Assembly (NCBI GenBank): GCA_035943095.1
Contig: DASZCN010000060.1
Span: forward strand, 3,710 to 67,709
DNA: 64,000 bases
DNA from: Gemmatimonadales bacterium
Lineage (GTDB): Bacteria > Gemmatimonadota > Gemmatimonadetes > Gemmatimonadales > GWC2-71-9
Direction of reading: 5' to 3'
Both the position numbers and the translations under genes were made by a program. The notes below the pieces were generated by a model that saw only the letters and a list, made by a program, of their open reading frames with translations, did no database searches and had not been told where the DNA came from. Each line of letters opens with the position of its first letter. Position 1 is the stretch's first letter. Shown one piece after another: positions 3,334 through 41,300 of this stretch.

Positions 3334-4226
3334 CGGACGTGCCATTCCGCGTCGAGCAATTCGGGGACTATCTCGCCCTCGAGTCGGGCAGCAGCACGCA
3401 CACGGTGAGCAATTATCTCCGCGATGTCCGGCGGCTCGCGGACTACGCGGCCGCGCAGGGCGCGCGCAGCCCCGAGGATGTGACGAGCGCCCAGCTGCGG
3501 GAGTTCGTCTACGCGCTCAAGGACTTGGGGCTCGCCCCGGCGACCATCCGGCGCCAAATCTCCGCGGTTCGCACCTACTATCGCTTCCTGGTGGGCGAGG
3601 GGCATGCCGCTCGGGACCCGAGCGAGCGCCTGGAGTCGCCGCGCCAATGGCGCCGGCTGCCGACCGTGCTGTCCGTCCCGGAGATCGAGCGCCTGCTCGC
3701 CGCCCCGAACACCGACGAGCCGCTCGCCATCCGCGACCGCGCCCTGCTGGAGTTCGCCTACGCCACGGGCGCACGCGTGAGCGAGCTTGTGGGGCTCGGA
3801 GTACAAGACGTGTTCTACGAAGAAGGCCTCACTCGGATTTTCGGAAAGGGATCGAAGGAGCGCGTGGTCCCCGTCGGCCGCCGGGCGCTCGGCGCCGTCG
3901 CCCTGTACACGCGCGAGATCCGGCCGCGGTTCGACCACGGACGGGGACGCGGCAAAGTCTTCCTCAATGCACGTGGTACGCCGCTCTCACGGGTGGGTGC
4001 GTGGGGCATTATCCGCCGCTCGGCGCGGCTCGCCGGCATCGCCAAGCGCGTCACCCCGCACACCCTGCGCCACACATTCGCGACCCACCTGCTCGAGGGG
4101 GGCGCCGACCTCCGCGCCGTGCAGGAAATGCTCGGCCACGCCGATCTCGCCACGACGCAGCTCTACACGCATGTCGACCGAGAATATCTCCGAACCGTGC
4201 ACAAGACCTTCCATCCCCGCGGCTGA
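3324..4226 (+). CDS. xerD: Site-specific tyrosine recombinase XerD
   Basis: Catalytic set R (ATGARVSE), K (GKGSKER), HxxR (HTLRH), H (LGH), Y (TQLYTH); 300 aa; housekeeping context. Confidence 0.88.
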   Translation: MDLTDVPFRVEQFGDYLALESGSSTHTVSNYLRDVRRLADYAAAQGARSPEDVTSAQLREFVYALKDLGLAPATIRRQISAVRTYYRFLVGEGHAARDPSERLESPRQWRRLPTVLSVPEIERLLAAPNTDEPLAIRDRALLEFAYATGARVSELVGLGVQDVFYEEGLTRIFGKGSKERVVPVGRRALGAVALYTREIRPRFDHGRGRGKVFLNARGTPLSRVGAWGIIRRSARLAGIAKRVTPHTLRHTFATHLLEGGADLRAVQEMLGHADLATTQLYTHVDREYLRTVHKTFHPRG

Positions 4227-25394: not shown

Positions 25395-26109
25395 GCGCGC
25401 CCTGGTGGTCGTTCCCACCTACAACGAAGTGGGGAACATCCCGCACCTCGTGCCCCAGGTGCTGGCCCAGGATACGCGTCTCGAAATCCTCGTGGTCGAC
25501 GACGATTCCCCGGACGGCACAGGGCGGCTGGCTGAGGCCCTGGCGGCCAAGGAGCCCCGCCTGCACGTCCTGCACCGGGACGGCAAGCTGGGGCTCGGAA
25601 CGGCCTACCTGACCGGATTCCGCTGGGCGCTCGAGCGGGGGTACGACTATATCTTCGAGATGGATGCCGACTTTTCACACGACCCCGTGCACCTAAAGGA
25701 CTTTCTGAGCACGATTTGCCAGGCCGACCTCGTGCTCGGGTCGCGCTATCTGAACGGAAAGGTGACGGTCGTCAACTGGCCGATGGGGCGCCTGGTGCTA
25801 TCGTATTGTGCCAACATTTACGCCCGCTGGCTGACTGGGCTCCGGATCTGGGACTTGACCGGGGGGTTCAAGTGCTTTCGTAGGACCGTGCTCGAAGCGA
25901 TCGACCTGTCACGGGTCCGCTCGAACGGGTACGCCTTTCAGATCGAAATGAGTGTGAGAGCATGGCGCAAAGGGTTCACGCTGAAGGAAATCCCGATCGT
26001 GTTCGTCGACCGAACCGAGGGGCAAAGCAAGATGAATCGGGCGATCGTCCGGGAAGCGGTATGGATGGTACCGCGGCTCAGGCTAATGGCCTGGTTCGGC
26101 CGCATCTAG
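25387..26109 (+). CDS. Polyprenol monophosphomannose synthase (Ppm1/Dpm1-like GT2)
   Basis: VVPTYNE, VDDDSPDGT, GLGTAY, MDADFSHDP, DLTGGFKCFRR, GYAFQIE. Confidence 0.9.
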   Translation: MGERALVVVPTYNEVGNIPHLVPQVLAQDTRLEILVVDDDSPDGTGRLAEALAAKEPRLHVLHRDGKLGLGTAYLTGFRWALERGYDYIFEMDADFSHDPVHLKDFLSTICQADLVLGSRYLNGKVTVVNWPMGRLVLSYCANIYARWLTGLRIWDLTGGFKCFRRTVLEAIDLSRVRSNGYAFQIEMSVRAWRKGFTLKEIPIVFVDRTEGQSKMNRAIVREAVWMVPRLRLMAWFGRI

Positions 26110-26942
26110 TCGGTACGACGATCTACAAAATGACGGGGTCGGGGAACGACTTCGTCATGGTGGATGCACGCCACACGCCTCCGAGCGACTGGTCGCCTCA
26201 GGACATCCGGGCGGTGTGCGCCCGCGGGACCGGCGTCGGCGCCGACGGCCTCGTGTTCGTAGGACCCGGATCCGCGCAGGACACCGTGCGCATGATCTAT
26301 TTCAACTCAGACGGCTCGCGTGCCGCGATGTGCGGGAATGCGGCCCTGTGCAGCACCCGCCTCGCTGCGCGCCTGGGGCTCGCGCGCGCACTACACATGA
26401 CCCTCGAGACGGACGCGGGCACGTACGTCAGCCGGTGCGACGGAGAACACCACGAAGAGCGCGCCGAGCTGCATCTCGCGCCGGTCACGAAACCGACGCC
26501 GGTCGAGGGACTCGCGAGTGCCCCCGGCGAGCGCAACGTCGTGTTGGGAACCGTCGGGGTGCCTCATCTGGTCGTCTTGGTGGACGACGTGGACCAGGTC
26601 GACGTGATCGTCCGCGGCAAGGCGCTCCGGTCCGACCGGGCGCTCGGACCCGCCGGCGCGAATGTCAACTTCATCTCAGCCGGACCCGCCCGCCGGGCGT
26701 CGGAATGGCGCATGCGCACTTACGAACGCGGCATCGAGGACGAGACCCTGGCGTGCGGAACCGGGGCCGTAGCGGCGGCGTGCGCCCTGGCGGAATGGGG
26801 CATGGCGCAAGCGCCGTTGACGTTCTGGACGCGGAGCGGCAGACGCCTCGAGGTCCGCCTGCGGAAGGCATCCGCCGACGTTTATGACGACGTGTGGCTA
26901 GGCGGGGAGGCTCGGCTCGTTGTACGGGGTGTGATTAACTGA
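26106..26942 (+). CDS. dapF: Diaminopimelate epimerase (start codon uncertain)
   Basis: YKMTGSGNDF, GVGADG, NSDGSRAAMCGN, GVPH, ERG, ETLACGTG. Confidence 0.92.
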   Translation, partial: LVGTTIYKMTGSGNDFVMVDARHTPPSDWSPQDIRAVCARGTGVGADGLVFVGPGSAQDTVRMIYFNSDGSRAAMCGNAALCSTRLAARLGLARALHMTLETDAGTYVSRCDGEHHEERAELHLAPVTKPTPVEGLASAPGERNVVLGTVGVPHLVVLVDDVDQVDVIVRGKALRSDRALGPAGANVNFISAGPARRASEWRMRTYERGIEDETLACGTGAVAAACALAEWGMAQAPLTFWTRSGRRLEVRLRKASADVYDDVWLGGEARLVVRGVIN

Positions 26943-26971
26943 GGTGCTTCTCCACATTCCTATGCCATTCA

Positions 26972-26999
26972 GCTTAACATAACATATCTTATACGAAGT
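26972..26999 (-). other. dif site (XerC/XerD chromosome dimer resolution site)
   Basis: - strand ACTTCGTATAA-GATATG-TTATGTTAAGC: 11-6-11 layout; XerD arm 9/11 identical to E. coli TTATGTTAAAT; XerC arm 9/11 to B. subtilis ACTTCCTAGAA; gene strand switches here. Confidence 0.85.
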
Positions 27000-27018
27000 A
27001 TCACAAGGCAAAAGGGCG

Positions 27019-27684
27019 CTATTTTGGCCCGCTCGACCGTCCCTTCGTCAGCTCCCCTATCCTCACTTTTGCCTCCCCAGCGGCGCTCGTCGAGTCCAGT
27101 TTCGCAGCGATGGTCTGGTACGCCGCCAGCGCCTTGGTGGTGTCGCCGGCCGCTAACCACGCGCGCCCTGCGTCGGACAGGAACTGCGCCCGGAGGAACG
27201 GATACGGAGCGTCGTCGGCCGCGGACTGGTACGCTCCGGCGGCATCCTTGGGGCGCGCCGCGTTCTCGTACGCAGCCCCGAGCAGCCCGTAGGCCTGGGA
27301 TTGGAACTGTCGGTCGGCCTTGGGTGCGTACCGCTGCAGGACGTCGATCGCCTGTTGCGTCTGACCCTGGGCGAGCCGCACCTGTGCGAGCAGGATAATG
27401 CCCTCGTCCGCCGCGCGGGTCCCCGAATAATTCTCCACCACTTGCGACAACACGCTCGCGGCGAACGGATAGTTCTTCGTTTCGAGGGCCAGGCGACCCT
27501 GCTCGAGCTGCCGGCTAGCGCTCTTCTCCGCCGTTCGCGACGACAGCAGGCTCCACCCGAAGAGTCCCGCGGCTACGAGGAGCCCGAAGCCCGCGTACGC
27601 CGACCACCGCCGGTGGGCCTTGAGCCACTCGACGACCCCAGCCCACGCTGTCGAACCCTCCGCCGCCGTTACCGTCGTTGCCAT
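27019..27684 (-). CDS. Membrane-anchored TPR protein (YfgM-like)
   Basis: ATG 27684 with GAAGGG SD; N-terminal TM after W..LKAHRR; TPR-like helices. Confidence 0.75.
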   Translation of the reverse strand: MATTVTAAEGSTAWAGVVEWLKAHRRWSAYAGFGLLVAAGLFGWSLLSSRTAEKSASRQLEQGRLALETKNYPFAASVLSQVVENYSGTRAADEGIILLAQVRLAQGQTQQAIDVLQRYAPKADRQFQSQAYGLLGAAYENAARPKDAAGAYQSAADDAPYPFLRAQFLSDAGRAWLAAGDTTKALAAYQTIAAKLDSTSAAGEAKVRIGELTKGRSSGPK

Positions 27685-27695
27685 GTGCCCCTTCG

Positions 27696-27785
27696 GGAGG
27701 TCGTGGAGGTCGAGGTTGGGGAGGTTGAAGGAGGTTGGGGAGGACCTCCCCCGACCTCCACCAACTTCCAGAACCTCCCAAACCT
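27696..27785. repeat. Periodic GGAGG(T) repeats followed by inverted (A)CCTCC repeats (imperfect ~90-nt hairpin)
   Basis: GGAGG at 27696, 27705, 27720, 27730, 27739; CCTCC at 27745, 27755, 27774; CTTCC at 27765; ~9-10 nt period. Confidence 0.85.
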
Positions 27786-27794
27786 GCTTTAGTG

Positions 27795-27868
27795 CGCCCC
27801 TGGGGTGACTCGAACACCCGGCCAACGGTTTAGGAAACCGCTGCTCTATCCACCTGAGCTACAGGGGC
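27795..27868 (-). tRNA. tRNA-Arg (anticodon CCT); CCA not encoded
   Basis: Acceptor GCCCCTG/CAGGGGC; anticodon arm GCGGT-TTCCTAA-ACCGT; T-loop TTCGAGT. Confidence 0.95.
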
Positions 27869-27890
27869 TAAGCTCAGTAACTTAGCGACT

Positions 27891-28427
27891 TTACGCGTAG
27901 TGCAGCAAGGCCTCGATCCGCTCGTCCTTAAGCCGCTTTCGACCCTTCAGAAAGTCGAGCTCGATGAGAAACGTGAACCCGACGACGTGCGCGCCGTGGT
28001 TCCGCACCAATCTGGCCGCCGCCTCCGCCGTCCCGCCGGTCGCGAGTACGTCGTCCACGATCAAGACCCGATCTTGTCCACCCACTGCGTCACGGTGCAT
28101 TTCGAGGGCATCCGTGCCGTATTCTAGCGCGTACTCGACCCTCCCGCGCGCCGCAGGCAGCTTGCCGGGTTTCCGAATCGGCACGAGGCCCGCTTCGATC
28201 GCCAGCGCGATCGGGGCGCCCAACAGAAACCCGCGCGATTCGATCGAAACGACGCGCGTGACTCGGGACGTGCGGAACGGCGCCGCCATGAGATCGACGG
28301 CGCGACGGAACAACGCCGGGTCGAGCAGGAGCGGCGTGATGTCCTTGAACAGAACCCCCGGTTTCGGAAAATCCGGGACGTCCCGGATGGCTCCGTAGAT
28401 CTCGTCGACCGCGCTCGCTTGGGTCAC
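27891..28427 (-). CDS. apt: Adenine phosphoribosyltransferase
   Basis: PDFPKPGVLFKDITP, IRKPGKLP, LEYG, VDDVLATGGT. Confidence 0.96.
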   Translation of the reverse strand: MTQASAVDEIYGAIRDVPDFPKPGVLFKDITPLLLDPALFRRAVDLMAAPFRTSRVTRVVSIESRGFLLGAPIALAIEAGLVPIRKPGKLPAARGRVEYALEYGTDALEMHRDAVGGQDRVLIVDDVLATGGTAEAAARLVRNHGAHVVGFTFLIELDFLKGRKRLKDERIEALLHYA

Positions 28428-28441
28428 CGACGGCCCCCCAA

Positions 28442-28714
28442 CTACCTGATGTCAAAGTTCTTCGGAAGCGTCTCTTCATGTGGAAAGTCACTTGCGTCCA
28501 CACGCTCGACCTGTGCGGCCGCAGGTCCGCGGGCGAGTGCCTGCGCGAGTTGGGCCAGGGCCGCGCCCGACCCGGCGGCAACCACTTCCACAGAGCCGTC
28601 GTGGAGGTTGCGCGCGAAGCCGCGGAGGTGGAGCGGTTCGGCCTGCCGCAGGACAAACCAGCGGAAACCCACACCCTGCACGCGCCCGCGGATTAGGAAG
28701 CGCTTGGCGGCCAT
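28442..28714 (-). CDS. acyP: Acylphosphatase
   Basis: [19 protein letters not shown]. Confidence 0.93.
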
Positions 28715-28721
28715 TCCAGCG

Positions 28722-29432
28722 CTATTGCTCGTGTGTCTGGACGGGCCCCCGCGGCCCCCCCGGCCCCCCCGGTCCCTCCGGGCCGGCAGCCCCCGCCGCT
28801 CCCGTCGCCCCGGCCCGCCGGCGGTGCCACCAAACGTAGACCGCGGTAATCACCGCCAGGATCGGCAGTAACACCAGGATGGCGCGCCCGGCGTACCGCT
28901 GCGCCTCGCGGTTCAACACCTCGAGAATGACATCCTCACGGCTTCCGATGAACCATCCGATGCCCGTCAGGATGGAGCACCATACGAGCGCGCCGAGCCC
29001 GGTGAACAGCACGAACCTGCCGAGGTTCATCCTCGCGACTCCCGCCGGAATCGAAATGAGGTGGCGTACGACCGGAAGCATGCGTCCGAGGAATGTGCTG
29101 ATCTCACCGTGCGCCGCGAAGTAGCGCTCCGATCTGTCGAGCCCCTTCTCCGTGATGAGCACATACTTCCCGAGGCGCAGGAAGAACGCCCGACCCAGCC
29201 ACCGGGCGAGCCAATAATTGCCGAGCGCCCCAAGCATGCTCCCCAGCACGCCGCAGAGCACAGCCAAGACGAGGCTCATCTCGCCCTTGGCGGCGAGATA
29301 GCCCGCCGGGGGCATGACCAGCTCACTCGGCAGCGGCAGGATCGACGACTCCACCGCCATCAGGGCGATGATCCCGGGGTATCCCATGCCGCGGAACAGA
29401 TTCAGGAGCCAGCTGACGAACGATTCAAGCAT
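28722..29432 (-). CDS. DedA family protein with Gly/Pro-rich C-terminal tail
   Basis: [33 protein letters not shown]; ATG 29432. Confidence 0.88.
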
Positions 29433-30120
29433 CGAAGCCGTGCTCCCCGACGAGGGGGACAAATCGGGCGGAGCCCAGGGATGTCTGCCGGAGCTCTGGC
29501 GTGCGCCCGATCCGCTCGACCAGCGTGAGGACCTGCGCGCCGACTCCCCGTTGACCAAGCGGGATCAGGAGCCTGCCGTCCGGCGCCAACTGCTCCACGA
29601 GGGGCGGCGGGACCTCCGGGCCGCCAGCGGCGACGAGGATTGCGTCGTAGGGCGCGTAGGCGCTCCACCCCAGGGTTCCGTCGCCCAGGAGCACCGATGC
29701 GTTGACAACCCCGGCCTCCCGAAGCGCCCCTTGGGCCGCTAGCGCGAGGGCCTCAACCCGCTCAACCGAGAAGACGGTGCCCGCCAGCGCCCCAAGCAGC
29801 GCCGTCTGGTAGCCCGAGCCGGTGCCGATCTCGAGGACCCGCTCGGTGCCGGTCAGTCGCAGCGCCTCCAGGTAACGGGCCTGCATGAACGGCTGCGAGA
29901 TCGTTTGCCCGTTGCCGATCGGGAGCGCGGAGTCGTCGTACGCGCGGTGCCGCACCGCGGGTGCCACAAAGAGGTGCCGTGGCGTCTCCGCGAACGCCTT
30001 GAGCACGGCTAGATCGCGGATACCGCGACTGCGCAGCGTCTCGACGAGCCGCACCCGGTAGCCGGCGTAGGTGTCGGCGGGCCCCCCCCCGCCGCCCCCG
30101 GTCAGTCGCCCGTGAGCCAT
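29425..30120 (-). CDS. pcm: Protein-L-isoaspartate O-methyltransferase
   Basis: PRHLF, QTISQP, LEIGTGSGYQTA, GDGTLGW, FVPLVG; follows surE. Confidence 0.93.
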   Translation of the reverse strand: MAHGRLTGGGGGGPADTYAGYRVRLVETLRSRGIRDLAVLKAFAETPRHLFVAPAVRHRAYDDSALPIGNGQTISQPFMQARYLEALRLTGTERVLEIGTGSGYQTALLGALAGTVFSVERVEALALAAQGALREAGVVNASVLLGDGTLGWSAYAPYDAILVAAGGPEVPPPLVEQLAPDGRLLIPLGQRGVGAQVLTLVERIGRTPELRQTSLGSARFVPLVGEHGFDA

Positions 30121-30851
30121 TGGCGCACCACCTCGATCAGTCGATAGTTCGTCATGTCCATATGGAGCGGGGTCACGGAGATGTAGCCGTCGCTCGTGGC
30201 CCGGAAGTCCGATTCCGCCCCACCGGTCCACGTGATATGACCACCGCCAATCCAATAGATGTCCTTGCCCCAAGGGTCCTTCATGAGGGCGATCTCTTCG
30301 CTGAACACCCGACTGCCGAGGTGTGTCACCTTCACGCCCTTTACCTGAGCGCCCGGGATGGCGGGGAGATTGATGTTCAGGAGGGTTTCTTTCGGGAAGT
30401 CCTTGACGGCGGTGATCCGCTTGAGCAGGGCGCGCAGGCCATCCTTGTGCGTCTCGAGCATGTCCAGGTCCGAGCCGGCGAATGAGACGGCGATGCTCGG
30501 GATGCCCCCCACCAGGCCTTCCATGGCGGCGGCAACAGTGCCCGAGTAGAACACGTCCTCCCCCATGTTCTGACCGTGGTTGATCCCCGAGATCACGAAA
30601 TCCGGCTTCTGGGGCATGAGCATGCCGATCGCGAGCAGCACGCAGTCGGTCGGCGTCCCGTCCAGCTGGAAGCTGCCGTCGGGCCGGCGCGTCGCACGAA
30701 GCGGGCGGTGCAACGTGAGCGAGTGCGACGTGCCGCTTTGCTCGCGGTCCGGAGCGACCACGGTCACCTGTCCCAGCGACCCACACACGTCTCCCAGCAC
30801 CGCGAGTCCGCGAGCGAGAATACCGTCGTCGTTCGAGATGAGAATGTTCAT
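30102..30851 (-). CDS. surE: 5'/3'-nucleotidase SurE
   Basis: ILISNDDG, SGTSHS, GTPTDC, SGINHGQN, YSGTV, SVTPL. Confidence 0.96.
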   Translation of the reverse strand: MNILISNDDGILARGLAVLGDVCGSLGQVTVVAPDREQSGTSHSLTLHRPLRATRRPDGSFQLDGTPTDCVLLAIGMLMPQKPDFVISGINHGQNMGEDVFYSGTVAAAMEGLVGGIPSIAVSFAGSDLDMLETHKDGLRALLKRITAVKDFPKETLLNINLPAIPGAQVKGVKVTHLGSRVFSEEIALMKDPWGKDIYWIGGGHITWTGGAESDFRATSDGYISVTPLHMDMTNYRLIEVVRQWLTGD

Positions 30852-31561
30852 GGAGCTCGGAGCTCAGGCCCCAGGAGGATCTCCCGGCTGTACCGCGTGA
30901 ACACGCGCGCGAGGCGCCAGGTGTCCGTCCAGCGCCGAAAGTGACTGGGCCGACCTTCGTACACCGTCGGGATCGGCTGCGAGTGCACCGCAAACCCTCG
31001 CGCCAGCGCCGCGAGGAGGAACGCGGTCTCGTAATCGTAGCCCCGCTCGCTAGGCCGGATCGCCTCCGCGATACCGCGGGACAGGGCACGGAAGCCGGTC
31101 TGGGCGTCCGGCACGGTCACGCCGCCGATCCGCGAGGCGAGCGTCGCGGAGAGCCAGTTGGTGCAACGCCTCCCCCACGGCATGGCGCCGGTGCGGACCC
31201 GGGCGCCGAGGACGAGGTCCGCCCCACCAAGAGCGACTGCCGCCGCGAGGCGCGGGATCTCCTCCGGCGGATGCTGTCCGTCGCCGTCGAGGGTAACGAT
31301 GACGCTCGCGCCGTCCTGGAGCGCCGCGGTGATGCCGGTCTCGAGCGCGGCGCCCTTACCGCAATTCCGTGGATGCGTCAGTACGGTCGCCCCTTTCCCC
31401 CGTCCCCGTTCTCCCGTCCCGTCGGTTGAGCCGTCGTCCACAAGGTACACGATCGCGTCCGGCACGGCGCGGCGCGTCCGGGTCACGACCTCGGTGATGG
31501 TGGCAGCAGCCTGGTAGGCGGGGATGACGACGGCGACGGCCTGGTCAGCGCCCTCCGGCAT
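30848..31561 (-). CDS. GT2 glycosyltransferase
   Basis: VIPAYQ, VDDGSTD, GKGAAL, DGDGQHPP, DAQTGFR. Confidence 0.88.
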   Translation of the reverse strand: MPEGADQAVAVVIPAYQAAATITEVVTRTRRAVPDAIVYLVDDGSTDGTGERGRGKGATVLTHPRNCGKGAALETGITAALQDGASVIVTLDGDGQHPPEEIPRLAAAVALGGADLVLGARVRTGAMPWGRRCTNWLSATLASRIGGVTVPDAQTGFRALSRGIAEAIRPSERGYDYETAFLLAALARGFAVHSQPIPTVYEGRPSHFRRWTDTWRLARVFTRYSREILLGPELRAP

Positions 31562-31919
31562 TCGGCGCGTTTCCTTCGAGAACGGCGAGGACGGCCTTGA
31601 GCTCCGCGCGCAAGTCCTTCACCGTCTGAGTCGCGAGCGCGCGTCTCGCCTCCGGCTTGAGCTCGCCCGAGCGCCGGTATTGCTCGATCTTCTGCCGCGC
31701 GCCTTCGATCGTGTACTTCTCGGTATACAGGAGATGCTTGACGAGCATGATGAGCTCGATTTCGCGGCGCTGATACACGCGGTTCCCCGACCGGTTCTTG
31801 GCTGGATTGAGGAATCGAAACTGGCTCTCCCAGTACCGCAGCACGTGCGGCTTGAGATCGGTGAGCTGGCACACTTCGCCGATCGAGAAGAACTCCTGCA
31901 CCGGATGCGGCGAGCTCAT
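31545..31919 (-). CDS. MerR-family transcriptional regulator
   Basis: FSIGEVC...KPHVLRYWE..F..L.P....GNRVY. Confidence 0.9.
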   Translation of the reverse strand: MSSPHPVQEFFSIGEVCQLTDLKPHVLRYWESQFRFLNPAKNRSGNRVYQRREIELIMLVKHLLYTEKYTIEGARQKIEQYRRSGELKPEARRALATQTVKDLRAELKAVLAVLEGNAPNAGGR

Positions 31920-32929
31920 TGCCCTCCCCACTGCTCGGGCTTCAGCTCCCGCTCCATCAGGTCCACCAAGGCCTGTTGCGGAGATTTGCCCTGGAACAGT
32001 ACAGCAGCCACCTCGCGTGCAATCGGGAGCTCCACACCGTGCCGCTCGCCGAGCGTCACAGCCGAGCGAGCGGTGTTCACGCCCTCGGCGACCGATGCGC
32101 GACTAGAGAGCGCGTCTTCGAGGCGCTTGCCGCGTCCCAGCTCGACCCCGAGCGTGTGATTGCGCGACAGCGGCCCCGTGGCCGTGAGCACCAAGTCCCC
32201 CATGCCGGCCAGCCCCGCGAACGTCGCGGGCTCCGCCCCCAGTGCCACGCCGAGCCGAGTGATCTCCGCCAAGCCCCGGGTCACGAGCGCCGCGCGTGTG
32301 TTGTAGCCCATACCCAAGCCTTCCAGGATCCCCGCGGCGAGCGCGATAACGTTCTTGAGAGCCCCGCCGAGCTCCACACCGATCACGTCCGTGGCGGAAT
32401 AAACGCGGAAGTGCCCGACGGAGAATACCTGCTGCACCTGCTGGGCGTCGCCGTGGTCCCGCGCTGCCGCCACGACCGCCGTCGGCTGACGCGCGTACAC
32501 CTCTTGAGCGAACGACGGCCCCGAGAGCACGGCGATCCGCGTGCCCTTTGCGAGCACGTCCTGCAAGACACACGACAGGGTCGCGAGGCGCTCCGGCTCG
32601 AGACCCTTCGACACGCTGACGACCAGGGCACGCCGATCGATCACGGCACTCGCCCGCGTCATCACTTCGCGCACGGCGTGCGACGGTGCTGCCGACACGA
32701 CGACGTCCGCACCGCGCACTACCGTCGTGACGTCCCTCTCGGCGGTGAGGGACGGCGCGAGCGCTGCACCGGGGAGAAAGAGGTGGTTCACGTGCTCCCG
32801 ATTCACGCCGTCGACCACTTCGGGCTCGCGCGCCCAAAGGGTGACCGCTTCGCACTCGCCCTTGCGAGCCAGCAGGTCCGCCAGCGCCGTGCCCCAGGCG
32901 CCACCGCCCACGACCGCGACGCGCGTCAT
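31916..32929 (-). CDS. gpsA: NAD(P)H-dependent glycerol-3-phosphate dehydrogenase
   Basis: VGGGAWGTALA, SKG, SGPSFA, GGALKNV, GDLVLT, SRN. Confidence 0.96.
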   Translation of the reverse strand: MTRVAVVGGGAWGTALADLLARKGECEAVTLWAREPEVVDGVNREHVNHLFLPGAALAPSLTAERDVTTVVRGADVVVSAAPSHAVREVMTRASAVIDRRALVVSVSKGLEPERLATLSCVLQDVLAKGTRIAVLSGPSFAQEVYARQPTAVVAAARDHGDAQQVQQVFSVGHFRVYSATDVIGVELGGALKNVIALAAGILEGLGMGYNTRAALVTRGLAEITRLGVALGAEPATFAGLAGMGDLVLTATGPLSRNHTLGVELGRGKRLEDALSSRASVAEGVNTARSAVTLGERHGVELPIAREVAAVLFQGKSPQQALVDLMERELKPEQWGGQ

Positions 32930-33552
32930 GGAGCGGACACGCCGACGCCTCTGCGAGTGCGGAACCGGTTCTCCGTTCCCTCACGCAAGCGCCGGACGTT
33001 GTGCCGGTGCGAGTAAACGATGATCACGGCCAGCGCAACGGCGGCCCATAACGTGTGGGGCTGATTGCGGGTCGTCAGCCCCACCCACACGGGGAACAGC
33101 ACGGCGACGCACAGCGAAGCGACCGACACGTACCCCGAAAGCCAGAGCGCTATGATCCAGATGGGGATGGAGATCGCGACGGCGAGGGGCGCCAAGGCGA
33201 GGAACATTCCGGCCGCCGTCGCCACTCCCTTACCGCCTTTGAACCCCACGTACGGGGAGAAGATATGCCCCAATACCGCCGCCAGTCCCAACGCGACGGT
33301 GAACCACGCCGGACCGTCGGCCCAGGGGCCCAGGATGACGATCGGGATCGCGCCTTTGGCTACGTCGATCAGCGCCACCGGGATCGCGTATCCCCACCCG
33401 AGCACGCGGTAGACATTCGTCGCGCCAAGGTTCTTGGAACCCTGGTCGCGCAGGTCGATCCCCCGCCCCAGCCGGCCGGCCACGTAGCTCGTGGGCGTGG
33501 CCCCGACGAGATAGGCGAGAATGAGCATGACGGCGAGCCCGTAGTCGTTCAT
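32926..33552 (-). CDS. plsY: Glycerol-3-phosphate acyltransferase PlsY
   Basis: GSKNLGATNVYR, DVAKG, GH..SP...FKGGKGVAT, HRHNVRRL. Confidence 0.96.
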   Translation of the reverse strand: MNDYGLAVMLILAYLVGATPTSYVAGRLGRGIDLRDQGSKNLGATNVYRVLGWGYAIPVALIDVAKGAIPIVILGPWADGPAWFTVALGLAAVLGHIFSPYVGFKGGKGVATAAGMFLALAPLAVAISIPIWIIALWLSGYVSVASLCVAVLFPVWVGLTTRNQPHTLWAAVALAVIIVYSHRHNVRRLREGTENRFRTRRGVGVSAP

Positions 33553-34880
33553 CGGCGGGCCGTCTCCCGCCTACGGCGGAACTTGAGGTTCACCGGCGAG
33601 CCCGTGAACTGCCACGCGTCACGGAAGCCGTTCAGGAGGTAGCGCGTGTACGCCTCCGGGATCGCGTCGGGCCGGTTGGACACGATCGCGAACCGGGGCG
33701 GTGCCGTTCCGATCTGAGAGGCGTACAGGAGGCGCACCGACTCACCCACAGGCTGAGGCGGCTGCTGGCGGTCCACCAGACGCTCGAGCACACGGTTCAC
33801 CTCGGCCGTGGGAACCCGTTTGGCGCGCTCCTCCGCCACCTCGAGGATCAAGTCAGGAAGCTTGGTCACCCGCTGCCCGGTCTTGGCGGAGACGTACAGG
33901 AAGGGGATGAACTCCAAGAAGGGAGCGCGCTCCCGGAGCTCCCGCTCGCCCCGCACCGCTGTATTCGAGTCCTTCTCCTCGACCAGGTCCCACTTGTTGA
34001 CCGCGATGATGAGTGCGACGCCTCGGTCCCAGGCGTCGTTGGCGATTTTTAGATCCTGGACGTGCATGCCGTCCTTCGCATCCACGACCAGGACGCAGAC
34101 GTCCGCGTGCTCCACGGCGCGGGAGGTCCGCAGGGTGGAGTAGAACTCGATGTCGTCCTCGACCTTGCTGCGCTTGCGCAGTCCGGCCGTGTCGATAAAC
34201 ACGAGCGCCCGGCCGTGCCACAGGAGCGGCGTGTCGATCGCGTCGCGCGTCGTGCCCGGCTCGTCTGCGACGACCAGGCGCTCCTCGCCGAGCAGGCGAT
34301 TCACGAGGCTCGACTTGCCGACGTTCGGGCGCCCCACGACGGCCACCCGGATTTCGGCCTCCTCTCCCGCCGGCGCCGTGCCGGGGAGGCGCGCCACGAT
34401 GGCGTCGAGCAGGTCCCCTGAGCTCGTGCCGATGCCCGCGGAAATCGGAAGGGGATCGCCGAGGCCAAGCTCGTAAAAGGCGAGATGCCGCGTGTCTTCG
34501 GGTAGGTGGTCCGCCTTGTTGGCGACGAGGATCATCGGGCGGCGGGCCTTGCGCAGGTACGCGGCGATCTCCAGGTCCGCAGGGTGCACTCCCTCGGTCA
34601 CATCGACCAGGAACAGCACCAGATCGCTCTCGGCCACGGCCGTTTCGACCTGCGTACGCACCGCGCGGCTGAGCTGGTCCTGGGCGCCCGGCACCATTCC
34701 CCCGGTGTCCACGAGCCAAAAGCGCCGCCCGTTCCACTCGAGCGTGCCGAAGTGCCGGTCCCGCGTCACGCCCGGGCGATCATCCACGATCGCCTCGCGC
34801 CCGCCGATCAGGCGGTTGAAGAGGGTGGACTTCCCGACGTTGGGACGACCGATGATGGCGACGGTGGGGGCCCCTCTCAC
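33549..34880 (-). CDS. der: Ribosome biogenesis GTPase Der (EngA)
   Basis: Two GRPNVGKS P-loops, DTGG/DTAG, NKWD, C-terminal KH-like domain. Confidence 0.97.
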   Translation of the reverse strand: MRGAPTVAIIGRPNVGKSTLFNRLIGGREAIVDDRPGVTRDRHFGTLEWNGRRFWLVDTGGMVPGAQDQLSRAVRTQVETAVAESDLVLFLVDVTEGVHPADLEIAAYLRKARRPMILVANKADHLPEDTRHLAFYELGLGDPLPISAGIGTSSGDLLDAIVARLPGTAPAGEEAEIRVAVVGRPNVGKSSLVNRLLGEERLVVADEPGTTRDAIDTPLLWHGRALVFIDTAGLRKRSKVEDDIEFYSTLRTSRAVEHADVCVLVVDAKDGMHVQDLKIANDAWDRGVALIIAVNKWDLVEEKDSNTAVRGERELRERAPFLEFIPFLYVSAKTGQRVTKLPDLILEVAEERAKRVPTAEVNRVLERLVDRQQPPQPVGESVRLLYASQIGTAPPRFAIVSNRPDAIPEAYTRYLLNGFRDAWQFTGSPVNLKFRRRRETARR

Positions 34881-36157
34881 GCGGCGACCTCCTCTTCCGC
34901 CAGCGCATCGGTGAAATCGTGGGAAAGGCGGATCGGCATCGGGAGGCGCTCCGCGAGCCCGTGTGCCTCCACGTCGTCCATGAACATGAGGTCGTCGTTC
35001 ACCGCTTCCGCAGGCAGGAGCGCGAGATCGAGATCGGGCCGCATGACCAGGGCACGTTCGATGGCCGCCGCCGGTAGGAGCCCCGCGGTCGTCACGCTGG
35101 GCCCGAACAGCGTGTTCTCCACGACGACCAGCTCGAACCGCGCCCGCGTCGCCAGGGTGAGCTCGTCAATCACCTGTGGCATCAGCCCGCCCATGGCGAT
35201 GCCGGTGACGATGCCGATGCGCCTCCCTGTCAGGTCCGGCAGTCGTCCCACCCCGGCGGCGATCCTGGTCTGCAGGAAACGCACCGAGCCCACGCCGTTC
35301 TCCCGCTGCTCGAACTCGCCGTACCACTCGGGAGAAGGCAACGGCTCCCCCGCCTGGAGGTACAGGTCGTCCGCCCCGAAACACCATGGGGCCCCCCGCT
35401 CCCCCAGGGCACGGGTCGCAATGCGATCGACTATGCCGAGCGCCGCCCGGCACTCCTGTGACGTGGGCGCGCGCACCAGATGGCGTTTCGAGAATTCCGT
35501 GAGCGCCACGGGAACCACAGACACCGACAGTACTCCGGGACCGATCGCGTACAAGTCCGAGAGCGTGCGCTCGAGCTGCACTCCGTCGTTCACGCCCGGC
35601 ACCAGAACCACCTGCGCGTGGAACGCGATTCCCCGCTCCGTGAACCCCCGCAGCTGCGGCACGATGTGCGGCGCCTCGGGGTTGCGTAACAGCCAGCGGC
35701 GGATCGTGGGATCGGTGGCATGCACCGAGACGTAGAGCGGCGAAAGTCGGTATTCGACGATGCGCTCGACGTCCCAGGCCTTGAGGTTCGTCAGCGTCGC
35801 GAAATTGCCATACCGGAACGACAGCCGGTAGTCGTCGTCGCGGATGTAGAGCGGTGTGCGCAACCCGTTCGGATTCCCGTCCACAAAGCAGAAGTCACAG
35901 TGGTTCGCGCAGCGCCGAATCCGCGGCGGCTCGAGCGTGACGCCCATCGGAAATCCCTCGGGGCGCTCGATGTCGTACTCGATCTCCGCTCCGGTCGGGA
36001 GCCGGGCGCGGAGCAGAAACCGCTCGTCCGCCGACAGGAACTCCCAGTCGAGAAAGTCCTCCAGCGCCCGGCCGTTGATGGCCAGGAGCTCCGTTCCAGG
36101 AAGGAGCCCGAGCTCGCCCCCGATGGAGTCCGGTGCGACCGTTTGAACGCGAATCAC
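34877..36157 (-). CDS. DUF512-domain putative radical SAM Fe-S protein with N-terminal PDZ-like region
   Basis: CANHCDFC, DDDYRLSF.YGNF.TLTN, SPLYVSVHAT, ENGVG, VTTAGLL. Confidence 0.85.
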   Translation of the reverse strand: MIRVQTVAPDSIGGELGLLPGTELLAINGRALEDFLDWEFLSADERFLLRARLPTGAEIEYDIERPEGFPMGVTLEPPRIRRCANHCDFCFVDGNPNGLRTPLYIRDDDYRLSFRYGNFATLTNLKAWDVERIVEYRLSPLYVSVHATDPTIRRWLLRNPEAPHIVPQLRGFTERGIAFHAQVVLVPGVNDGVQLERTLSDLYAIGPGVLSVSVVPVALTEFSKRHLVRAPTSQECRAALGIVDRIATRALGERGAPWCFGADDLYLQAGEPLPSPEWYGEFEQRENGVGSVRFLQTRIAAGVGRLPDLTGRRIGIVTGIAMGGLMPQVIDELTLATRARFELVVVENTLFGPSVTTAGLLPAAAIERALVMRPDLDLALLPAEAVNDDLMFMDDVEAHGLAERLPMPIRLSHDFTDALAEEEVAA

Positions 36158-36246
36158 GTCGTCTGCTTCACCTTCAAGGACTTTATGAAGCCTGGCGTCG
36201 CAACTCTAATGCACGCTATGACTTCCGACAGTCCACGTAATATGAC

Positions 36247-37872
36247 TTATGAAGCCCGGTAGCGCCAGCCGGCGATTCCCCGACCGTTCACCTTCAGGTC
36301 GAATGCCTGGCTCTGCCGTGGGGGAAGGGCGGGAATGTCCTGCGTCTGTCTGGCGACCGGTTGGCCGGTCGTGTCGAGCAAGTCCAGGGTGATCCGGAAG
36401 GGCCGGGATGGCGCCGCTTTGAGATTCACGGCGACCAGGGATAACGCCGCCCCGTCACTGTCCGGGACGAAGCTCGGGACGGTGACTTCGACGGCGAGGC
36501 CGGTGTCGGCCCGTGCAACATACGCCTTCGCCGAGTCCCGGGCGCGCCGGAAGTCCCAGCCTGCGGCGACCAGTCTGAGCGACGCCCGGCCGAGCGGGTC
36601 GAGCGCCAGCAGCCGCTGGGCGGTCGGGAGGAGGGAGGCCGAGTCGCGGAGCTGATAGTAGGCCGTCGCCAGGGAAAAGAGCGCATCCCTCCGATACGGA
36701 TTCTTGGCCAGGCCCAGCGCCAGCGCCCGGGCGCCGGGTCGGTACAGGCCCTGCCCTACCATCCGCGCCCCCGGACCGAACAACGCCTCGGGATCGAGAT
36801 CCTTCGCATGGGCAGCAAGGGAGTCGAATGCCGCGGCGGCCTGGACGGCGTGACCGCTTTGGGCGAACAGAATCGCGAGCGACGTCGCGGCCTCCACGTC
36901 ACCAGGGTAGACCGCCAGATAATTGACTAGCGATTGGACGGCTGGCGCGAACGCCGCCGTGAGGGTGCTCGAGTCCGCCGCCAGCTGCTGCAGTGCGGCA
37001 GCCAGGTTGGCCCGCTGGCGAGCGACCGCTTGGGCTCGCGCGGTGGAATCCCGAGTGAATAGCTGCTGGTCAGCGGGCGCGAGGTGCGCGCTCCGAGCCC
37101 TGCGCGATTGCGAAGACGCCAGGAGTCGCGCCAGCACCGTCGAGTCGCCCGTGATCCCGCGTTGGATCGAGTCGAGGCTGGCGCGCACCCCACCCGAACG
37201 CTGAGCCGCCGGGTGGCCTTGCACCTTGCGCACCGCCAGGTGCCAGGCGTTCCCGAGCGCCTCCCGCTTATCCTGTGCGAAGTTCGGGTCCTCTCCCGCG
37301 GTCCGGGCGGCGAGCGTGTAGTAGGCGGAGGCTGAATCGTCGTTGCCACGGCTGGCGTACAGGCCCGCGACAGTGGCGAACGTCTTGGGGTTCGTGGGCT
37401 CCAGGCGGGCCGCCACGCGCAGCAAGGCCAGCCCCGAATCCTCCTTCCCCTCCTGCCAGACTGAGAGCCCGGCGTTGAGCAGCTTCCCCCACAGATCGTT
37501 GCGGTAGGTCGCGATGTCGTCGCCGCATTTCGGAGCGAGCGTCCCGGCCCGGGTCAGCGCGGTATCGGCGCCCGTGGCGTCGCCAAGCTCGACGTAGTAC
37601 CGCCCCAGGTAGTACCAGGCCGCGGCGTTGGCGCCCTGGTTGTCCTGCACGATTGCCTCGGTGAGGAGTTTCCTGGCCTGGCCGAGCTGTTGATCGCGCT
37701 GCTCCGGCTTGTCCATCGCCGCCCGGAGTGCCAGCATGCCATTGTTGACCTTGGAGGGGCCTGGCGGGAGCTCACAGGGGGGTTGGGGAGGCACCCAGCC
37801 ACCCTGCGCGCTGAGCGGAACGGCCGAGAGGCCGCCGGCGAGGGCGAGCAGCGTGAGCCTGACGGCACGCAT
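36247..37872 (-). CDS. Secreted TPR protein with C-terminal beta (FxLYD-like) domain, paralog 1
   Basis: Signal peptide ending SAQ; AAWYYLGRYY; TPR helices; C-terminal ..QDIPAL..IAGWRY. Confidence 0.8.
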   Translation of the reverse strand: MRAVRLTLLALAGGLSAVPLSAQGGWVPPQPPCELPPGPSKVNNGMLALRAAMDKPEQRDQQLGQARKLLTEAIVQDNQGANAAAWYYLGRYYVELGDATGADTALTRAGTLAPKCGDDIATYRNDLWGKLLNAGLSVWQEGKEDSGLALLRVAARLEPTNPKTFATVAGLYASRGNDDSASAYYTLAARTAGEDPNFAQDKREALGNAWHLAVRKVQGHPAAQRSGGVRASLDSIQRGITGDSTVLARLLASSQSRRARSAHLAPADQQLFTRDSTARAQAVARQRANLAAALQQLAADSSTLTAAFAPAVQSLVNYLAVYPGDVEAATSLAILFAQSGHAVQAAAAFDSLAAHAKDLDPEALFGPGARMVGQGLYRPGARALALGLAKNPYRRDALFSLATAYYQLRDSASLLPTAQRLLALDPLGRASLRLVAAGWDFRRARDSAKAYVARADTGLAVEVTVPSFVPDSDGAALSLVAVNLKAAPSRPFRITLDLLDTTGQPVARQTQDIPALPPRQSQAFDLKVNGRGIAGWRYRAS

Positions 37873-38008
37873 GGGGAGCGGGGCTAGAAATGGCGCGGGA
37901 ACGCGCCGGTGTCAACAGCGGGGCGGCTGAGGCTACGAAAGCGTCAGGAAATGGTGCGAGAAGCCGGGAGCCACAAACCCTGAAGAGTCTGGGGGCATCC
38001 AAGGTGGC

Positions 38009-38374
38009 ATGGTCACACCAGACATGCCGCCCCGGACGCCATCCGCGCAGCTCGTCCCCGTCACCCCCCCGAAGGTCTACGCGAAGTGGTGGCGACAGGT
38101 GGTGAGGGATTGCCATTGCACGCCAGCGGTTCCCTTCGAGCGGCTGTCCTGGTTCAGCGTGAAGGGACATTCCTTCCCGTGCATCAAGGACGATTGCGTC
38201 GGGGCATTTGTCTGGAACGACTCAGCAGGTGTCCCGCCCACGATCCTATTAGCAAAGTGGGCGACCGGCGACCCGAGGATCGTGCGCCATGAAATGCTGC
38301 ATGCGGTACTGGGGGGAGACCTAACGCACCGCAACCCGCTGTGGCGATTCTACGACGTGAAGTTGGGCCCGTAG
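38009..38374 (+). CDS. Small hypothetical protein with HExxH (RHEMLH) metallopeptidase-like motif
   Basis: Only + strand ORF accepted on the right arm; HEMLH..H; four Cys; abuts the tRNA-Gly 3' end. Confidence 0.6.
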   Translation: MVTPDMPPRTPSAQLVPVTPPKVYAKWWRQVVRDCHCTPAVPFERLSWFSVKGHSFPCIKDDCVGAFVWNDSAGVPPTILLAKWATGDPRIVRHEMLHAVLGGDLTHRNPLWRFYDVKLGP

Positions 38375-38395
38375 CAGATCAATACTGAGTCGAAG

Positions 38396-38467
<72 letters not shown>

Positions 38468-38476
38468 GAGAAGCGG

Positions 38477-38506
38477 AATGTCACAGCGTATCCCGCTCCT
38501 TGTCAA
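38477..38506 (-). promoter_or_regulatory. Sigma-70-like promoter for tRNA-Gly
   Basis: - strand TTGACA (38506-38501), 18 nt spacer, GACATT (weak -10), ~9 nt before the tRNA. Confidence 0.45.
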
Positions 38507-38520
38507 CTATTTCCGATCAA

Positions 38521-40113
38521 TCACGACCGCTTGTAGCGCCACGCGGCAATCGCCGGCAGGTCGGCCGTCACCTTGAACGACTGGTTCGCGCCGGCGGCGA
38601 GCGCGGGCACGTCTTGTGGCTTTGATGCCACGACGGTACCGGTCTTGTCCAAGAACTCGAAGGTGATCGTGATCGGTGCCGAGCCCTTGGAGCGGAAGTT
38701 GGTGAACAGACCGCTCACCTCGGCGCCTTTGTCCGTCGCGATGAAATTGCCGACGGTGACCTCGATCGGCAGCGAATCCGCAAGCTGGAGGTAATGGAGG
38801 ACGGAGTCCTTCTGCCCGAGCAGCTGAAAACCACCGGCGATCTTGGCCAGGGTCAGACGGTTCATCGGATCGGCCCCATACAGCCGGCGCGCCAGCGGGA
38901 GCACCTTGGCGGTGTCGCCGATCATGTATGAAATGCCGGTCAGGTTGTACAAGGCGTCGCGCAGATAGGGATTCTTCGCGAGCCCAGCTTCGTACATCTT
39001 GACCACAAGACGATACTGCGGGTCGGCAAACGCGTGAAACTTGTGCATCGTGTCGGCGGCGGCCGGCTGGCATCGCACGGAGATCTGCCGCACCGTGAGC
39101 GCGGGCGTCTTCTTCTTCTGTACTTTAGCGCAGGTGGAGTCCATGGCCGCCGTGTCCGGGCTCGAAGGAATCACGCTGAGTACCGACTGCGCGGCCGCAA
39201 ACAGATCGTCTGGCGTGGCAGAATCGGAGTGCGCGATGAGCGCATTGTAGAGCGCCATGGCCGAATCCCGCTGGTTCTGGAGCGCCAATATCCCCGCCAG
39301 GCTCGCCATCGCTTGCACATCGTTGGGATAGGCGGCGAGGAATTCCTTATAGGCGCTGGCGGCCTCGTCGTAGCGCTTGGCCGAGTGATACACGCGAGCC
39401 ACGTTGAGGAACGCGCCCCGACGTTCGGTGGCATACTTCGGATCGGACGCGGCGGGCACCGCCAAGCGAAAGTACTTCGCCGCGGAGTCCAAGCGGGTCG
39501 CGTACACGAGCGAATCGGTGTGGTATTTCGTCGCATCCGTGCGCTTCAAGCCCGTGTCGGGCTCCTCGCGACCCACGAACAGATTCGCGAGGTAGATCAG
39601 GCCCAACGGCTCGCCCTGGTACATCTGATTCGCGTGCCGGAACGACACGATCGCCGAGTCCGTGTTTCCCGCTTGCCACGCCTGCACGCCGGCGTTGTAC
39701 ATGGGCACCCACGCCTGGCGACGGTACAGTCCGATGTCCTCCTTGCATGTAGGCGCCAGCGCCAACGCTTTGATGAACGCAGAATCCGCGCCCGCACCGT
39801 CCTGTACCATCAGGTAGTAGCGACCCAGGTAGTACCAGGCGGCCGGATTCTTCTCCTGTTTGCCCGTGGTCACCGCCTGCGTCAGCACACGCTCGGCGTC
39901 CTTCAGGTCCTTGGCCTTCTGATCGGCGAACTTCGTGGTGAATGCGCTTTTCAGCGACTGCATACCGCTGTTTACCAGCTGGTGACCGGGCTTGATATCA
40001 CACGCGGCCGGCAACCAGATCTGCTGCGCGGACGCCGAGGCCGGCGCCAGCAACACCAGGCAGCCGACCACCAGCACGCTCCCCCCCCCACGGATAGCCT
40101 GCGTTAGGCTCAT
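38521..40113 (-). CDS. Secreted TPR protein with C-terminal beta (FxLYD-like) domain, paralog 2
   Basis: ATG 40113; signal peptide ending ASAQ; NPAAWYYLGRYY; C-terminal ..QDVPAL..IAAWRY. Confidence 0.8.
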   Translation of the reverse strand: MSLTQAIRGGGSVLVVGCLVLLAPASASAQQIWLPAACDIKPGHQLVNSGMQSLKSAFTTKFADQKAKDLKDAERVLTQAVTTGKQEKNPAAWYYLGRYYLMVQDGAGADSAFIKALALAPTCKEDIGLYRRQAWVPMYNAGVQAWQAGNTDSAIVSFRHANQMYQGEPLGLIYLANLFVGREEPDTGLKRTDATKYHTDSLVYATRLDSAAKYFRLAVPAASDPKYATERRGAFLNVARVYHSAKRYDEAASAYKEFLAAYPNDVQAMASLAGILALQNQRDSAMALYNALIAHSDSATPDDLFAAAQSVLSVIPSSPDTAAMDSTCAKVQKKKTPALTVRQISVRCQPAAADTMHKFHAFADPQYRLVVKMYEAGLAKNPYLRDALYNLTGISYMIGDTAKVLPLARRLYGADPMNRLTLAKIAGGFQLLGQKDSVLHYLQLADSLPIEVTVGNFIATDKGAEVSGLFTNFRSKGSAPITITFEFLDKTGTVVASKPQDVPALAAGANQSFKVTADLPAIAAWRYKRS

Positions 40114-40115
40114 GC

Positions 40116-41300
40116 TCACTCCTTGGATTTGGCGACGAGCGCCTCGGCATCGCGCTCGGCGACGCGGGCGACTTCGAGCGGCGGCCGGCCCAGCGCCCGG
40201 GCGGCCGCGAGCACGTCGTCGTACTCTGGTTTCACGCGCACTCCGGTTGCATCGGCCTGCTCCAGCACCTTCACTCGCACGGCGACCTCCGGCGTGAGCT
40301 GGACCGTCACCTGACGCCGTGCCAAGGTCGCCCGCTCGGCCACCCAGCGGCGCACGCCGGCCGTCGTGCTGTGGCGAAACAACGCCGCGGTCACCCGCTC
40401 GGCCAGCCCTTCCGGCGCGACCACCTCCACCCGGAACCCGGACCGCCCTTTTTTCATCTGCACCGGCCAGGTTTGAACATCGAGCGCGCCCTCGGCCACG
40501 AGGGCCTGCCGCAGCGGCTCCACGTACTCGGGGCTCATGTCGTCCAGGTCGCTCGCCAACAGCACCACTCGCCCGGCCTCGGCCGCCTGCTCGGCGACCA
40601 GAATACGCAGTGCGTTGGGGTAGTGCGCGGGGTTGCGCTGCCCTGCCCCCCACCCGCTCTTCAGCAAGCGCCACTGCCGGGGCGGCGACCCGGCGGACAA
40701 CACGCGCACCAGTGCCGCGCCGGTCGGCGTGGTCGCTTCGCCTTCCACCGGCCCGCCACTGGCGAGCTCCAGGCCCTCGAGCAGTATCGCAGTCGCCGGT
40801 GCGGGCACCGGGAGCCGGCCGTGCGCCGCTTCGACCCAACCGCTCCCTGTGGCGACCGGCAACGTGTAGACAGCCTCCACCCCTAACTGCTCGAACCCCT
40901 CGATCGCGCCGACGATGTCGAGAATCGCGTCGACCGCCCCCACCTCGTGCAGGTGTACACGCTCCGGCGCGACGCCGTGCACGCGACCTTCAGCTTCGCC
41001 GATCAGCCGGAACGCCCGAAGAGCTCGCTCCTTGACCCAATTCGAAACGGGCGCTTGCTCGACCAAGCGCAACAGCTCGTCCACGTGACGCCCGTGCGGC
41101 CGATCGGGGATCGTGAACTCGACTTGCTTGCATGCCACCCCGCCACGGATAGCGTCCCGCGCTGCAACCCCCACGCCGGCCAGCCCCAAGCGCGTCGGTA
41201 ACCCTTCAAGCCACGCCGAGGGCACGCCGAGGGATAAGAGTGCCCCCAACGTCATGTCGCCGGATATCCCGGCTGCCGGGTCCAGGATCGCGATGCGCAT
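40116..41300 (-). CDS. larC: Nickel pincer cofactor biosynthesis protein LarC
   Basis: GISGDMTLGALL, AEGRVHG...VHLHEVGAVDAILDI, PVPAPAT, TPTGAA, MKKGR, PEYDD. Confidence 0.92.
   Translation of the reverse strand: MRIAILDPAAGISGDMTLGALLSLGVPSAWLEGLPTRLGLAGVGVAARDAIRGGVACKQVEFTIPDRPHGRHVDELLRLVEQAPVSNWVKERALRAFRLIGEAEGRVHGVAPERVHLHEVGAVDAILDIVGAIEGFEQLGVEAVYTLPVATGSGWVEAAHGRLPVPAPATAILLEGLELASGGPVEGEATTPTGAALVRVLSAGSPPRQWRLLKSGWGAGQRNPAHYPNALRILVAEQAAEAGRVVLLASDLDDMSPEYVEPLRQALVAEGALDVQTWPVQMKKGRSGFRVEVVAPEGLAERVTAALFRHSTTAGVRRWVAERATLARRQVTVQLTPEVAVRVKVLEQADATGVRVKPEYDDVLAAARALGRPPLEVARVAERDAEALVAKSKE

Follow-up and report, generated by a model that had tools for sequence, protein, structure and literature searches.

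An AT-rich 28-bp sequence on the minus strand (26972-26999), lying in a short gap between two convergent genes, is very probably the functional dif site, present once and at the terminus region, of the chromosome of an uncultured Gemmatimonadales bacterium from soil. The source genome is a draft of 148 contigs (3.44 Mb, 67% GC, 95% completeness). The window, by which we mean the whole 64,000-nt stretch of DNA analysed here, corresponds to C60:3710-67709 within a contig of 72.7 kb, and positions given without a contig name are window positions. The site and the features next to it were the following.

25962-26942, plus strand: dapF (diaminopimelate epimerase; PF01678, 130 bits), left neighbour of dif, conserved by synteny
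26972-26999, minus strand: dif site, with XerC arm ACTTCGTATAA (26999-26989), central region GATATG (26988-26983) and XerD arm TTATGTTAAGC (26982-26972)
27019-27825 (maximal ORF), minus strand: gene for a YfgM-like TPR protein (TPR_21 and other TPR families), right neighbour of dif, conserved by synteny
27794-27868, minus strand: tRNA-Arg (CCT), overlapping the 5' end of the TPR-gene maximal ORF

The site has the 11+6+11 architecture of dif with an inner ATAA/TTAT palindrome, and the gap that holds it spans 76 nt, from the dapF stop codon (26940-26942) to that of the TPR gene (27019-27021). As the tRNA-Arg gene overlaps the 5' end of the TPR-gene ORF, the true start of this gene should be located downstream of the ORF start. 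The original prediction, made from the sequence of the window, had given the sequence, strand, coordinates and convergent gap of the site correctly. It had also described the site as a combination of a Bacillus-like XerC arm and an E. coli-like XerD arm, and this was borne out by 2/11 mismatches between the XerC arm and that of B. subtilis and 2/11 between the XerD arm and that of E. coli, the two reference sites having been quoted as they are printed in Kono et al. 2011. The same locus was also present in metagenome-assembled Gemmatimonadales/Gemmatimonadota records including QHTX01000148.1 and DATNOH010000146.1, which are contigs of two congeners.

Uniqueness of the site in the assembly

Every position of the assembly, on either strand, was compared with four reference dif sites at the 22 positions that make up the arms. 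The best score genome-wide belonged to 26972-26999 with 4 mismatches, followed by two sites with 6 mismatches that were without the ATAA-N6-TTAT core, 24 sites with 7 and 177 sites with 8. Extrapolation from these genome-wide mismatch counts gave an expectation of roughly 0.05-0.1 sites by chance at 4 mismatches or fewer. The 28-mer itself was single copy in the assembly, and the degenerate core [AT]T[AT]A-N6-TTATG with its flanks had exactly one match assembly-wide. Uniqueness of the 28-mer had been proposed as a check on the site, and a better dif match elsewhere as grounds for abandoning it; the assembly contained the 28-mer once and no better match. By mismatch statistics alone the site is a modest outlier, and it is the comparative evidence that is decisive.

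Conservation and synteny in related genomes

The 28-mer was found within 3 mismatches in 26/41 related genomes, while a control search with the reversed pattern returned 0 matches. Substitutions among the relatives were confined to the 6-bp spacer (GATATG, TATATG, GAAATG, GATGTG, TCTATG and TAGATG) and to the outermost bases of the XerD arm, as would be expected of a Xer site. The junction between dapF and the TPR gene, whose conservation in relatives the original prediction had put forward for checking, was assembled in 19 congeners. Each of these (19/19) carried dif there with invariant arms and a variable spacer, so that, counting the genome under study, all 20 loci of the genus have dif in this junction. 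This arrangement was found again in more distant Gemmatimonadales, in which DapF identity was 41-47%. A second family featured the variant A[G]TTCGTATAA-N6-TTATGTAAACT or TATGCGTATAA, and the consensus at the level of the phylum was A[C/G]TTCGTATAA-N6-TTATGT[T/A]AA. The same arm pattern was also present elsewhere, in Bacilli, Methylophilaceae, Acinetobacter and others.

When the loci were stacked, the flanks held 0.26 bits/column on the XerC side and 0.67 bits/column on the XerD side relative to approximately 2 in the arms. The conservation figures for the arms are partly circular since the loci were retrieved by an arm match; the weight is carried by the contrast of the arms with their syntenic flanks, which is not circular.

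Five congeners had no match to the 28-mer. These were considered as counter-examples and rejected, since the junction is missing from their assemblies: three were without dapF and in two the contig ended inside dapF. Among the relatives, none was found that kept the gap between dapF and the TPR gene and had lost the 28-mer. The copy number was one per relative apart from genomes G003 and G028, with two matches each. Integration by Xer-exploiting mobile elements (IMEX) was considered for both and rejected. G003 is a mixed bin in which both copies are fully syntenic at 79-86% identity, and the second copy in G028 is a 127-bp contig-end overlap that includes dif.

Contigs ending less than approximately 2 kb from dif or inside dapF were common among the metagenome-assembled genomes of the genus and the order, including G002, G005, G009, G012, G013, G020 and G028 (loci L004, L008, L015, L016, L187, L188, L192 and L193). 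These breaks could reflect variation between strains, the integration of elements at dif in some members of the population, or just assembly noise.

Strand asymmetries on the contig

Gene strand, GC skew and the polarity of GGGNAGGG, the KOPS word of E. coli, all switched at dif, as expected of a terminus within the window, which the original prediction had proposed. Genes were called with a crude procedure based on long ORFs with a GC3 > GC1 > GC2 pattern. There were 17 plus-strand and 3 minus-strand genes to the left of dif and 5 plus-strand and 19 minus-strand genes to the right (Fisher p = 5e-5). The direction of the strand bias was therefore as predicted, while the exact exceptions that had been claimed, two genes on the left and one on the right, were not matched by these calls. 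The cleaner count is plausible since the crude caller miscalls at least xerD, and some of the plus-strand calls to the right of dif may be false.

On the left of dif GC skew was -0.001, close to zero rather than positive, and on the right it was -0.039. Over the 72.7-kb contig, mean-centred cumulative skew reached its maximum at 26946, 26 nt from dif. An inflection near 26985 had been predicted for the full chromosome, and at the contig scale that a 148-contig draft offers the change point agreed with it. The plateau around the change point was broad (26143-40331), and 30 of 2000 permutations of one-kb blocks reached the observed range. Occurrences of GGGNAGGG were distributed 12 plus to 2 minus on the left and 3 plus to 12 minus on the right of dif (p = 7e-4), giving a leading to lagging ratio of 24:5 on this contig.

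Terminus signals in related chromosomes

Longer sequences from relatives had the same asymmetries centred on dif. In G032, a genome of the same order with identical arms, dif is located on a 714-kb contig. In 20-kb bins the skew was positive in 10/10 to the left (+0.013 to +0.049) and negative in 9/10 to the right, the cumulative skew peaked at dif, and the coding strand went from approximately 111 kb plus and 16 kb minus on the left to mostly minus on the right. The motif GGGAAGGG was distributed 22:0 on the left of dif and 0:22 on the right, or 44:0 over 400 kb (L166-L185, G032:C2:115975-516002). The ratio of leading to lagging GGGNAGGG in this genome was 95:8, the most polarised among 42 composition-matched control motifs (median 64%). 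This strong polarity in Gemmatimonadales suggests that the FtsK gamma domain of Gemmatimonadota reads GGGNAGGG, as in E. coli.

The closed Longimicrobiales chromosome OZ220481 (2,856,470 bp) contained the homologous site ACTTCGTATAATATATATTATGTTAACT at 1,258,131, and its dnaA gene at 2.731 Mb was 51.6% of the circle away from dif. Skew in this chromosome was +0.080 in the 20 kb before dif and -0.062 in the 20 kb after it, and reverted between 2.72 and 2.74 Mb. For G041 (64% GC) gene-strand figures were left out, the first GC3-filtered caller having been too strict.

A putative replication origin

Five DnaA-box-like elements were clustered at C116:15950-16200, an AT-rich gap that precedes an rpoD-like gene. 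Around this gap the polarity of GGGNAGGG diverged, with 0 plus to 5 minus on the left and 4 plus to 1 minus on the right, and the GC skew changed from -0.013 to +0.014. Because of the diverging polarity and the change in the sign of the skew, C116:15950-16200 is a plausible and indeed probable oriC. The dnaA gene is located at C105:34826-36207 and not beside the C116 cluster. The region adjacent to dnaA on C105 was considered as an alternative origin and was rejected as there was no polarity switch, which indicates that oriC is probably elsewhere.

Recombinases and FtsK

Five tyrosine recombinases were encoded in the genome, two of which are candidates for the proteins that act at dif.

3324-4226, plus strand: xerD (300 aa; PF00589, 163 bits; TIGR02225 XerD, 343.4 bits against a cut-off of 329.6), approximately 23 kb from dif
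C118:4910-5827: XerC-like paralogue, with XerC as its best model (327.6 bits against a cut-off of 335.15, 7.5 bits short)

The xerD gene that had been reported 23 kb away was thus confirmed above the XerD equivalog cut-off. XerD and the XerC-like paralogue both had the complete catalytic set of R, K, H-x-x-R, H and Y. An FtsK protein with a gamma domain was also encoded (FtsK_gamma, 93.6 bits). Searches with the models of single-recombinase systems gave 94-105 bits for XerS against a cut-off of 267, and scores below the cut-off for XerA.

Two other proteins were recorded. The third tyrosine recombinase was an integron-type integrase at C97:36232-37305 on the plus strand (TIGR02249, 433 bits). 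A minus-strand gene at C119:13646-15601 encoded a 651-aa protein in which the DnaA-type AAA+ ATPase module occurs twice (two PF00308 matches, 329 bits) and which has neither the N-terminal domain nor the domain IV DNA-binding domain of DnaA; a tyrosine recombinase was located on the same contig.

By homology to E. coli and B. subtilis, XerC would bind the ACTTCGTATAA arm and XerD the TTATGTTAAGC arm. When sister chromosomes are joined as a dimer, FtsK bound at the septum would pump DNA towards dif, guided by polar motifs of the GGGNAGGG type that converge on the site. XerD would then be activated by the gamma domain of FtsK, and strand exchange in two successive steps across the 6-bp central region would resolve the dimer. 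We infer protein binding, the order of strand exchange, the dependence on FtsK and the fusion of forks nearby from these parallels. As dif, the site marks the terminus region, at which the replication arms meet.

Alternative explanations for the site

The possibility that the 28-mer is an attachment site of a Xer-exploiting mobile element, such as an IMEX attP/attB remnant, or a plasmid-type site resembling pdif, cer or psi was suggested by the occurrence of the same arm pattern on small plasmid-like Acinetobacter contigs, sometimes in two copies, which we take to be pdif-type sites, and by the two relatives with two copies. Those two relatives are explained by the mixed bin and the contig-end overlap described above. 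The single copy in the genome under study lies in a gap between housekeeping genes (dapF and yfgM-like) whose synteny extends over three families, which argues that no element has been inserted, and skew, gene strand and KOPS polarity all switch at the site. The closed chromosome OZ220481 likewise has exactly one site, at its skew maximum. Sites of the cer and psi type are plasmid-borne, and on their XerC side they carry accessory DNA of approximately 150-180 bp to which PepA binds together with ArgR or ArcA; here the XerC-side flank was unconserved, the additional motif described below was on the XerD side only, and the locus was chromosomal. We therefore regard a mobile or plasmid origin of the site as extremely unlikely. 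A chance AT-rich quasi-palindrome, or a transcription element such as a bidirectional terminator or an operator, would be in keeping with a convergent gap, where terminators are common, and with the modest outlier status of the site by mismatch statistics. However, there was no G+C-rich hairpin and no T run, the arms were fixed and the spacer free across lineages in which the flanks were randomised, and the same arms were located at the skew switch of a closed chromosome with different neighbour genes. Such an explanation has next to no probability.

It is also very unlikely that the site is a dif served by a single recombinase of the XerS, XerH or XerA-like kind rather than by a XerC/XerD pair. 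Systems of this kind have one dedicated recombinase, which usually lies beside an atypical site. The XerC candidate does fall slightly under its equivalog cut-off, and xerD and dif do share one contig. Against this, the genome encodes two distinct Xer paralogues with full catalytic sets that score best as XerD and XerC respectively, while the XerS and XerA models remained under their cut-offs. The arms of the site are asymmetric and each is separately conserved, and its length is 28 bp rather than that of the 31-bp difSL form. The reading of the 28-mer as a XerCD-type dif at the terminus was favoured by every one of the proposed checks that was run.

A DnaA-box-like motif on the XerD side of dif

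A second conserved element was located between dapF and the XerD arm.

26948-26956, plus strand: 9-mer TTCTCCACA conforming to the DnaA-box consensus TTNTCCACA, separated from the XerD arm by exactly 15 nt and from the dapF stop codon by 5 nt
26946-26957, plus strand: extended conserved block GCTTCTCCACAT (dif strand: ATGTGGAGAAGC), confined to the XerD side

An exact match to TTNTCCACA was present within 60 nt on the XerD side in 31/43 Gemmatimonadota dif loci, in one orientation throughout, and on the XerC side in 0/43. The offset from the arm was 15-16 nt in 29 of the 31 loci; the remaining two were at 6 nt and, when taken as a match to TGTGGA.AA, at 16 nt in f2 loci. The 5-mer core was found on the XerD side in 38 of the 43 loci and on the XerC side in 4. 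In 93 loci of other phyla that share the XerC arm the counts were 1 and 1, with exact TTNTCCACA on the XerD side in one of the 93. The intervening 15 nt between the XerD arm and the box were unconserved. Position 3 of the box was variable (C, G, T or A), and the relatives had TTCTCCACA, TTGTCCACA, TTTTCCACA or the perfect TTATCCACA at the same offset. In Longimicrobium, where dapF is not the neighbour, the motif was retained beside dif in 2-4 copies with a 10-nt period, some of them inverted, and 2-4 copies at a 10-nt period were likewise found in some Gemmatimonadaceae-type genomes.

The 9-mer is not a genome-wide repeat, with 21 copies in the assembly relative to approximately 30 expected, and TGTGGA[AG]AA was not enriched genome-wide either (17 observed, approximately 16 expected). 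One copy of the 9-mer was located directly upstream of dnaA and the variant beside dif recurred in the putative oriC cluster on C116. The DnaA protein of the genome is canonical, with the helix-turn-helix of domain IV present. The 9-mer beside dif matches a DnaA box in its sequence and would be a candidate for binding by DnaA.

Several other readings of the motif were considered and rejected. A KOPS- or SRS-like FtsK word was discarded because TGTGGAGAAGC points away from dif on its strand and is not enriched in the genome, the polarised word being GGGNAGGG. GTGGN direct repeats of the MraZ type were discarded as the genome is without a MraZ gene. An element belonging to the 3' end of dapF was discarded because the motif persists beside dif in Longimicrobium without dapF. 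Windows dense in TCCACA/TGTGGA on C29 and C96 were G+C-rich, seemingly coding-type sequence and look like chance occurrences.

These observations raise the possibility, which we put forward tentatively and as less than probable, that dif in Gemmatimonadota is a composite site that comprises the 28-bp XerCD core and, 15-16 nt beyond the XerD arm, a TTNTCCACA box that reads towards dif. DnaA, or another factor recognising the box, would then bind on the side where FtsK activates XerD, and the bound factor might gate or time dimer resolution or sense the completion of replication. A full-text literature search found no description, within the searched library, of DnaA boxes joined to dif. This fixed-distance companion is the only part of the locus that might surprise a specialist.

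Relation to known systems

The dif site described here is an ordinary, standard XerCD-type site, and its lack of annotation is usual for dif sites. It is not new in kind since dif was predicted for Gemmatimonas aurantiaca in 2011. In that survey dif was predicted in 641 organisms from 16 phyla, and the site of G. aurantiaca T-27, then the sole Gemmatimonadetes genome, was given as AATGCGTATAATACATGTTATGTAAACT, within 0.011% of the skew shift point (Kono et al. 2011). The published T-27 sequence comes from the same phylum and order and is identical in the inner arms (CGTATAA ... TTATGT.AA), while it differs at 2 positions of the XerC arm and 3 of the XerD arm. In the same study Gemmatimonadetes were best seeded with the Firmicutes profile (Kono et al. 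2011), which fits the Bacillus-like XerC arm of the present site. The authors also cautioned that dif marks the terminus region, or the convergence of polarity, and not necessarily the point of fork fusion (Kono et al. 2011).

The E. coli system of dif, XerC-XerD and FtsK is closely paralleled in the 28-bp 11+6+11 layout, the 2 mismatches in the XerD arm, the single copy at a skew switch, the presence of a XerD equivalog, a XerC-like paralogue and an FtsK gamma domain, and the convergence of GGGNAGGG on the site. Unlike E. coli dif, the present site has a Firmicutes-like XerC arm that differs from the E. coli arm at 4 positions, the spacer GATATG, and a DnaA-box-like motif 15 nt outside the XerD arm. 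To our knowledge, E. coli dif is not accompanied by a motif of this kind. Relative to dif and CodV-RipX of B. subtilis, the XerC arm ACTTCGTATAA has 2 differences from ACTTCCTAGAA, whereas the XerD arm has 3 mismatches and the polar motif is the E. coli KOPS-like GGGNAGGG and not the SRS motif of SpoIIIE, which is GAGAAGGG.

The 9-mer beside dif also invites comparison with DnaA-box loci outside the origin, namely datA and DARS1/2 of E. coli and the clusters of B. subtilis, with which it shares its fit to TTNTCCACA. Those loci are clusters that are mostly located near the origin or in mid-replichore, and in the searched library none is described at a fixed distance from dif, whereas the present locus has one box, and some relatives 2-4, with a constant spacing of 15-16 nt to the XerD arm.

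Significance for the genome and the phylum

The site fixes the terminus in a fragmented metagenome-assembled genome and provides an anchor for ordering its contigs into replichores; taken together with the putative oriC on C116, it places both ends of the replication arms. The 2011 prediction from a single Gemmatimonadetes genome is extended to a whole uncultured genus and to the order, and strong polarity of the E. coli-type KOPS word GGGNAGGG is shown for Gemmatimonadota. Were the box on the XerD side to prove a genuine protein-binding companion of dif, chromosomal Xer recombination would have an accessory element not described before. Should the composite site prove true, it would provide a physical link between the replication initiator and the end of the chromosome cycle.
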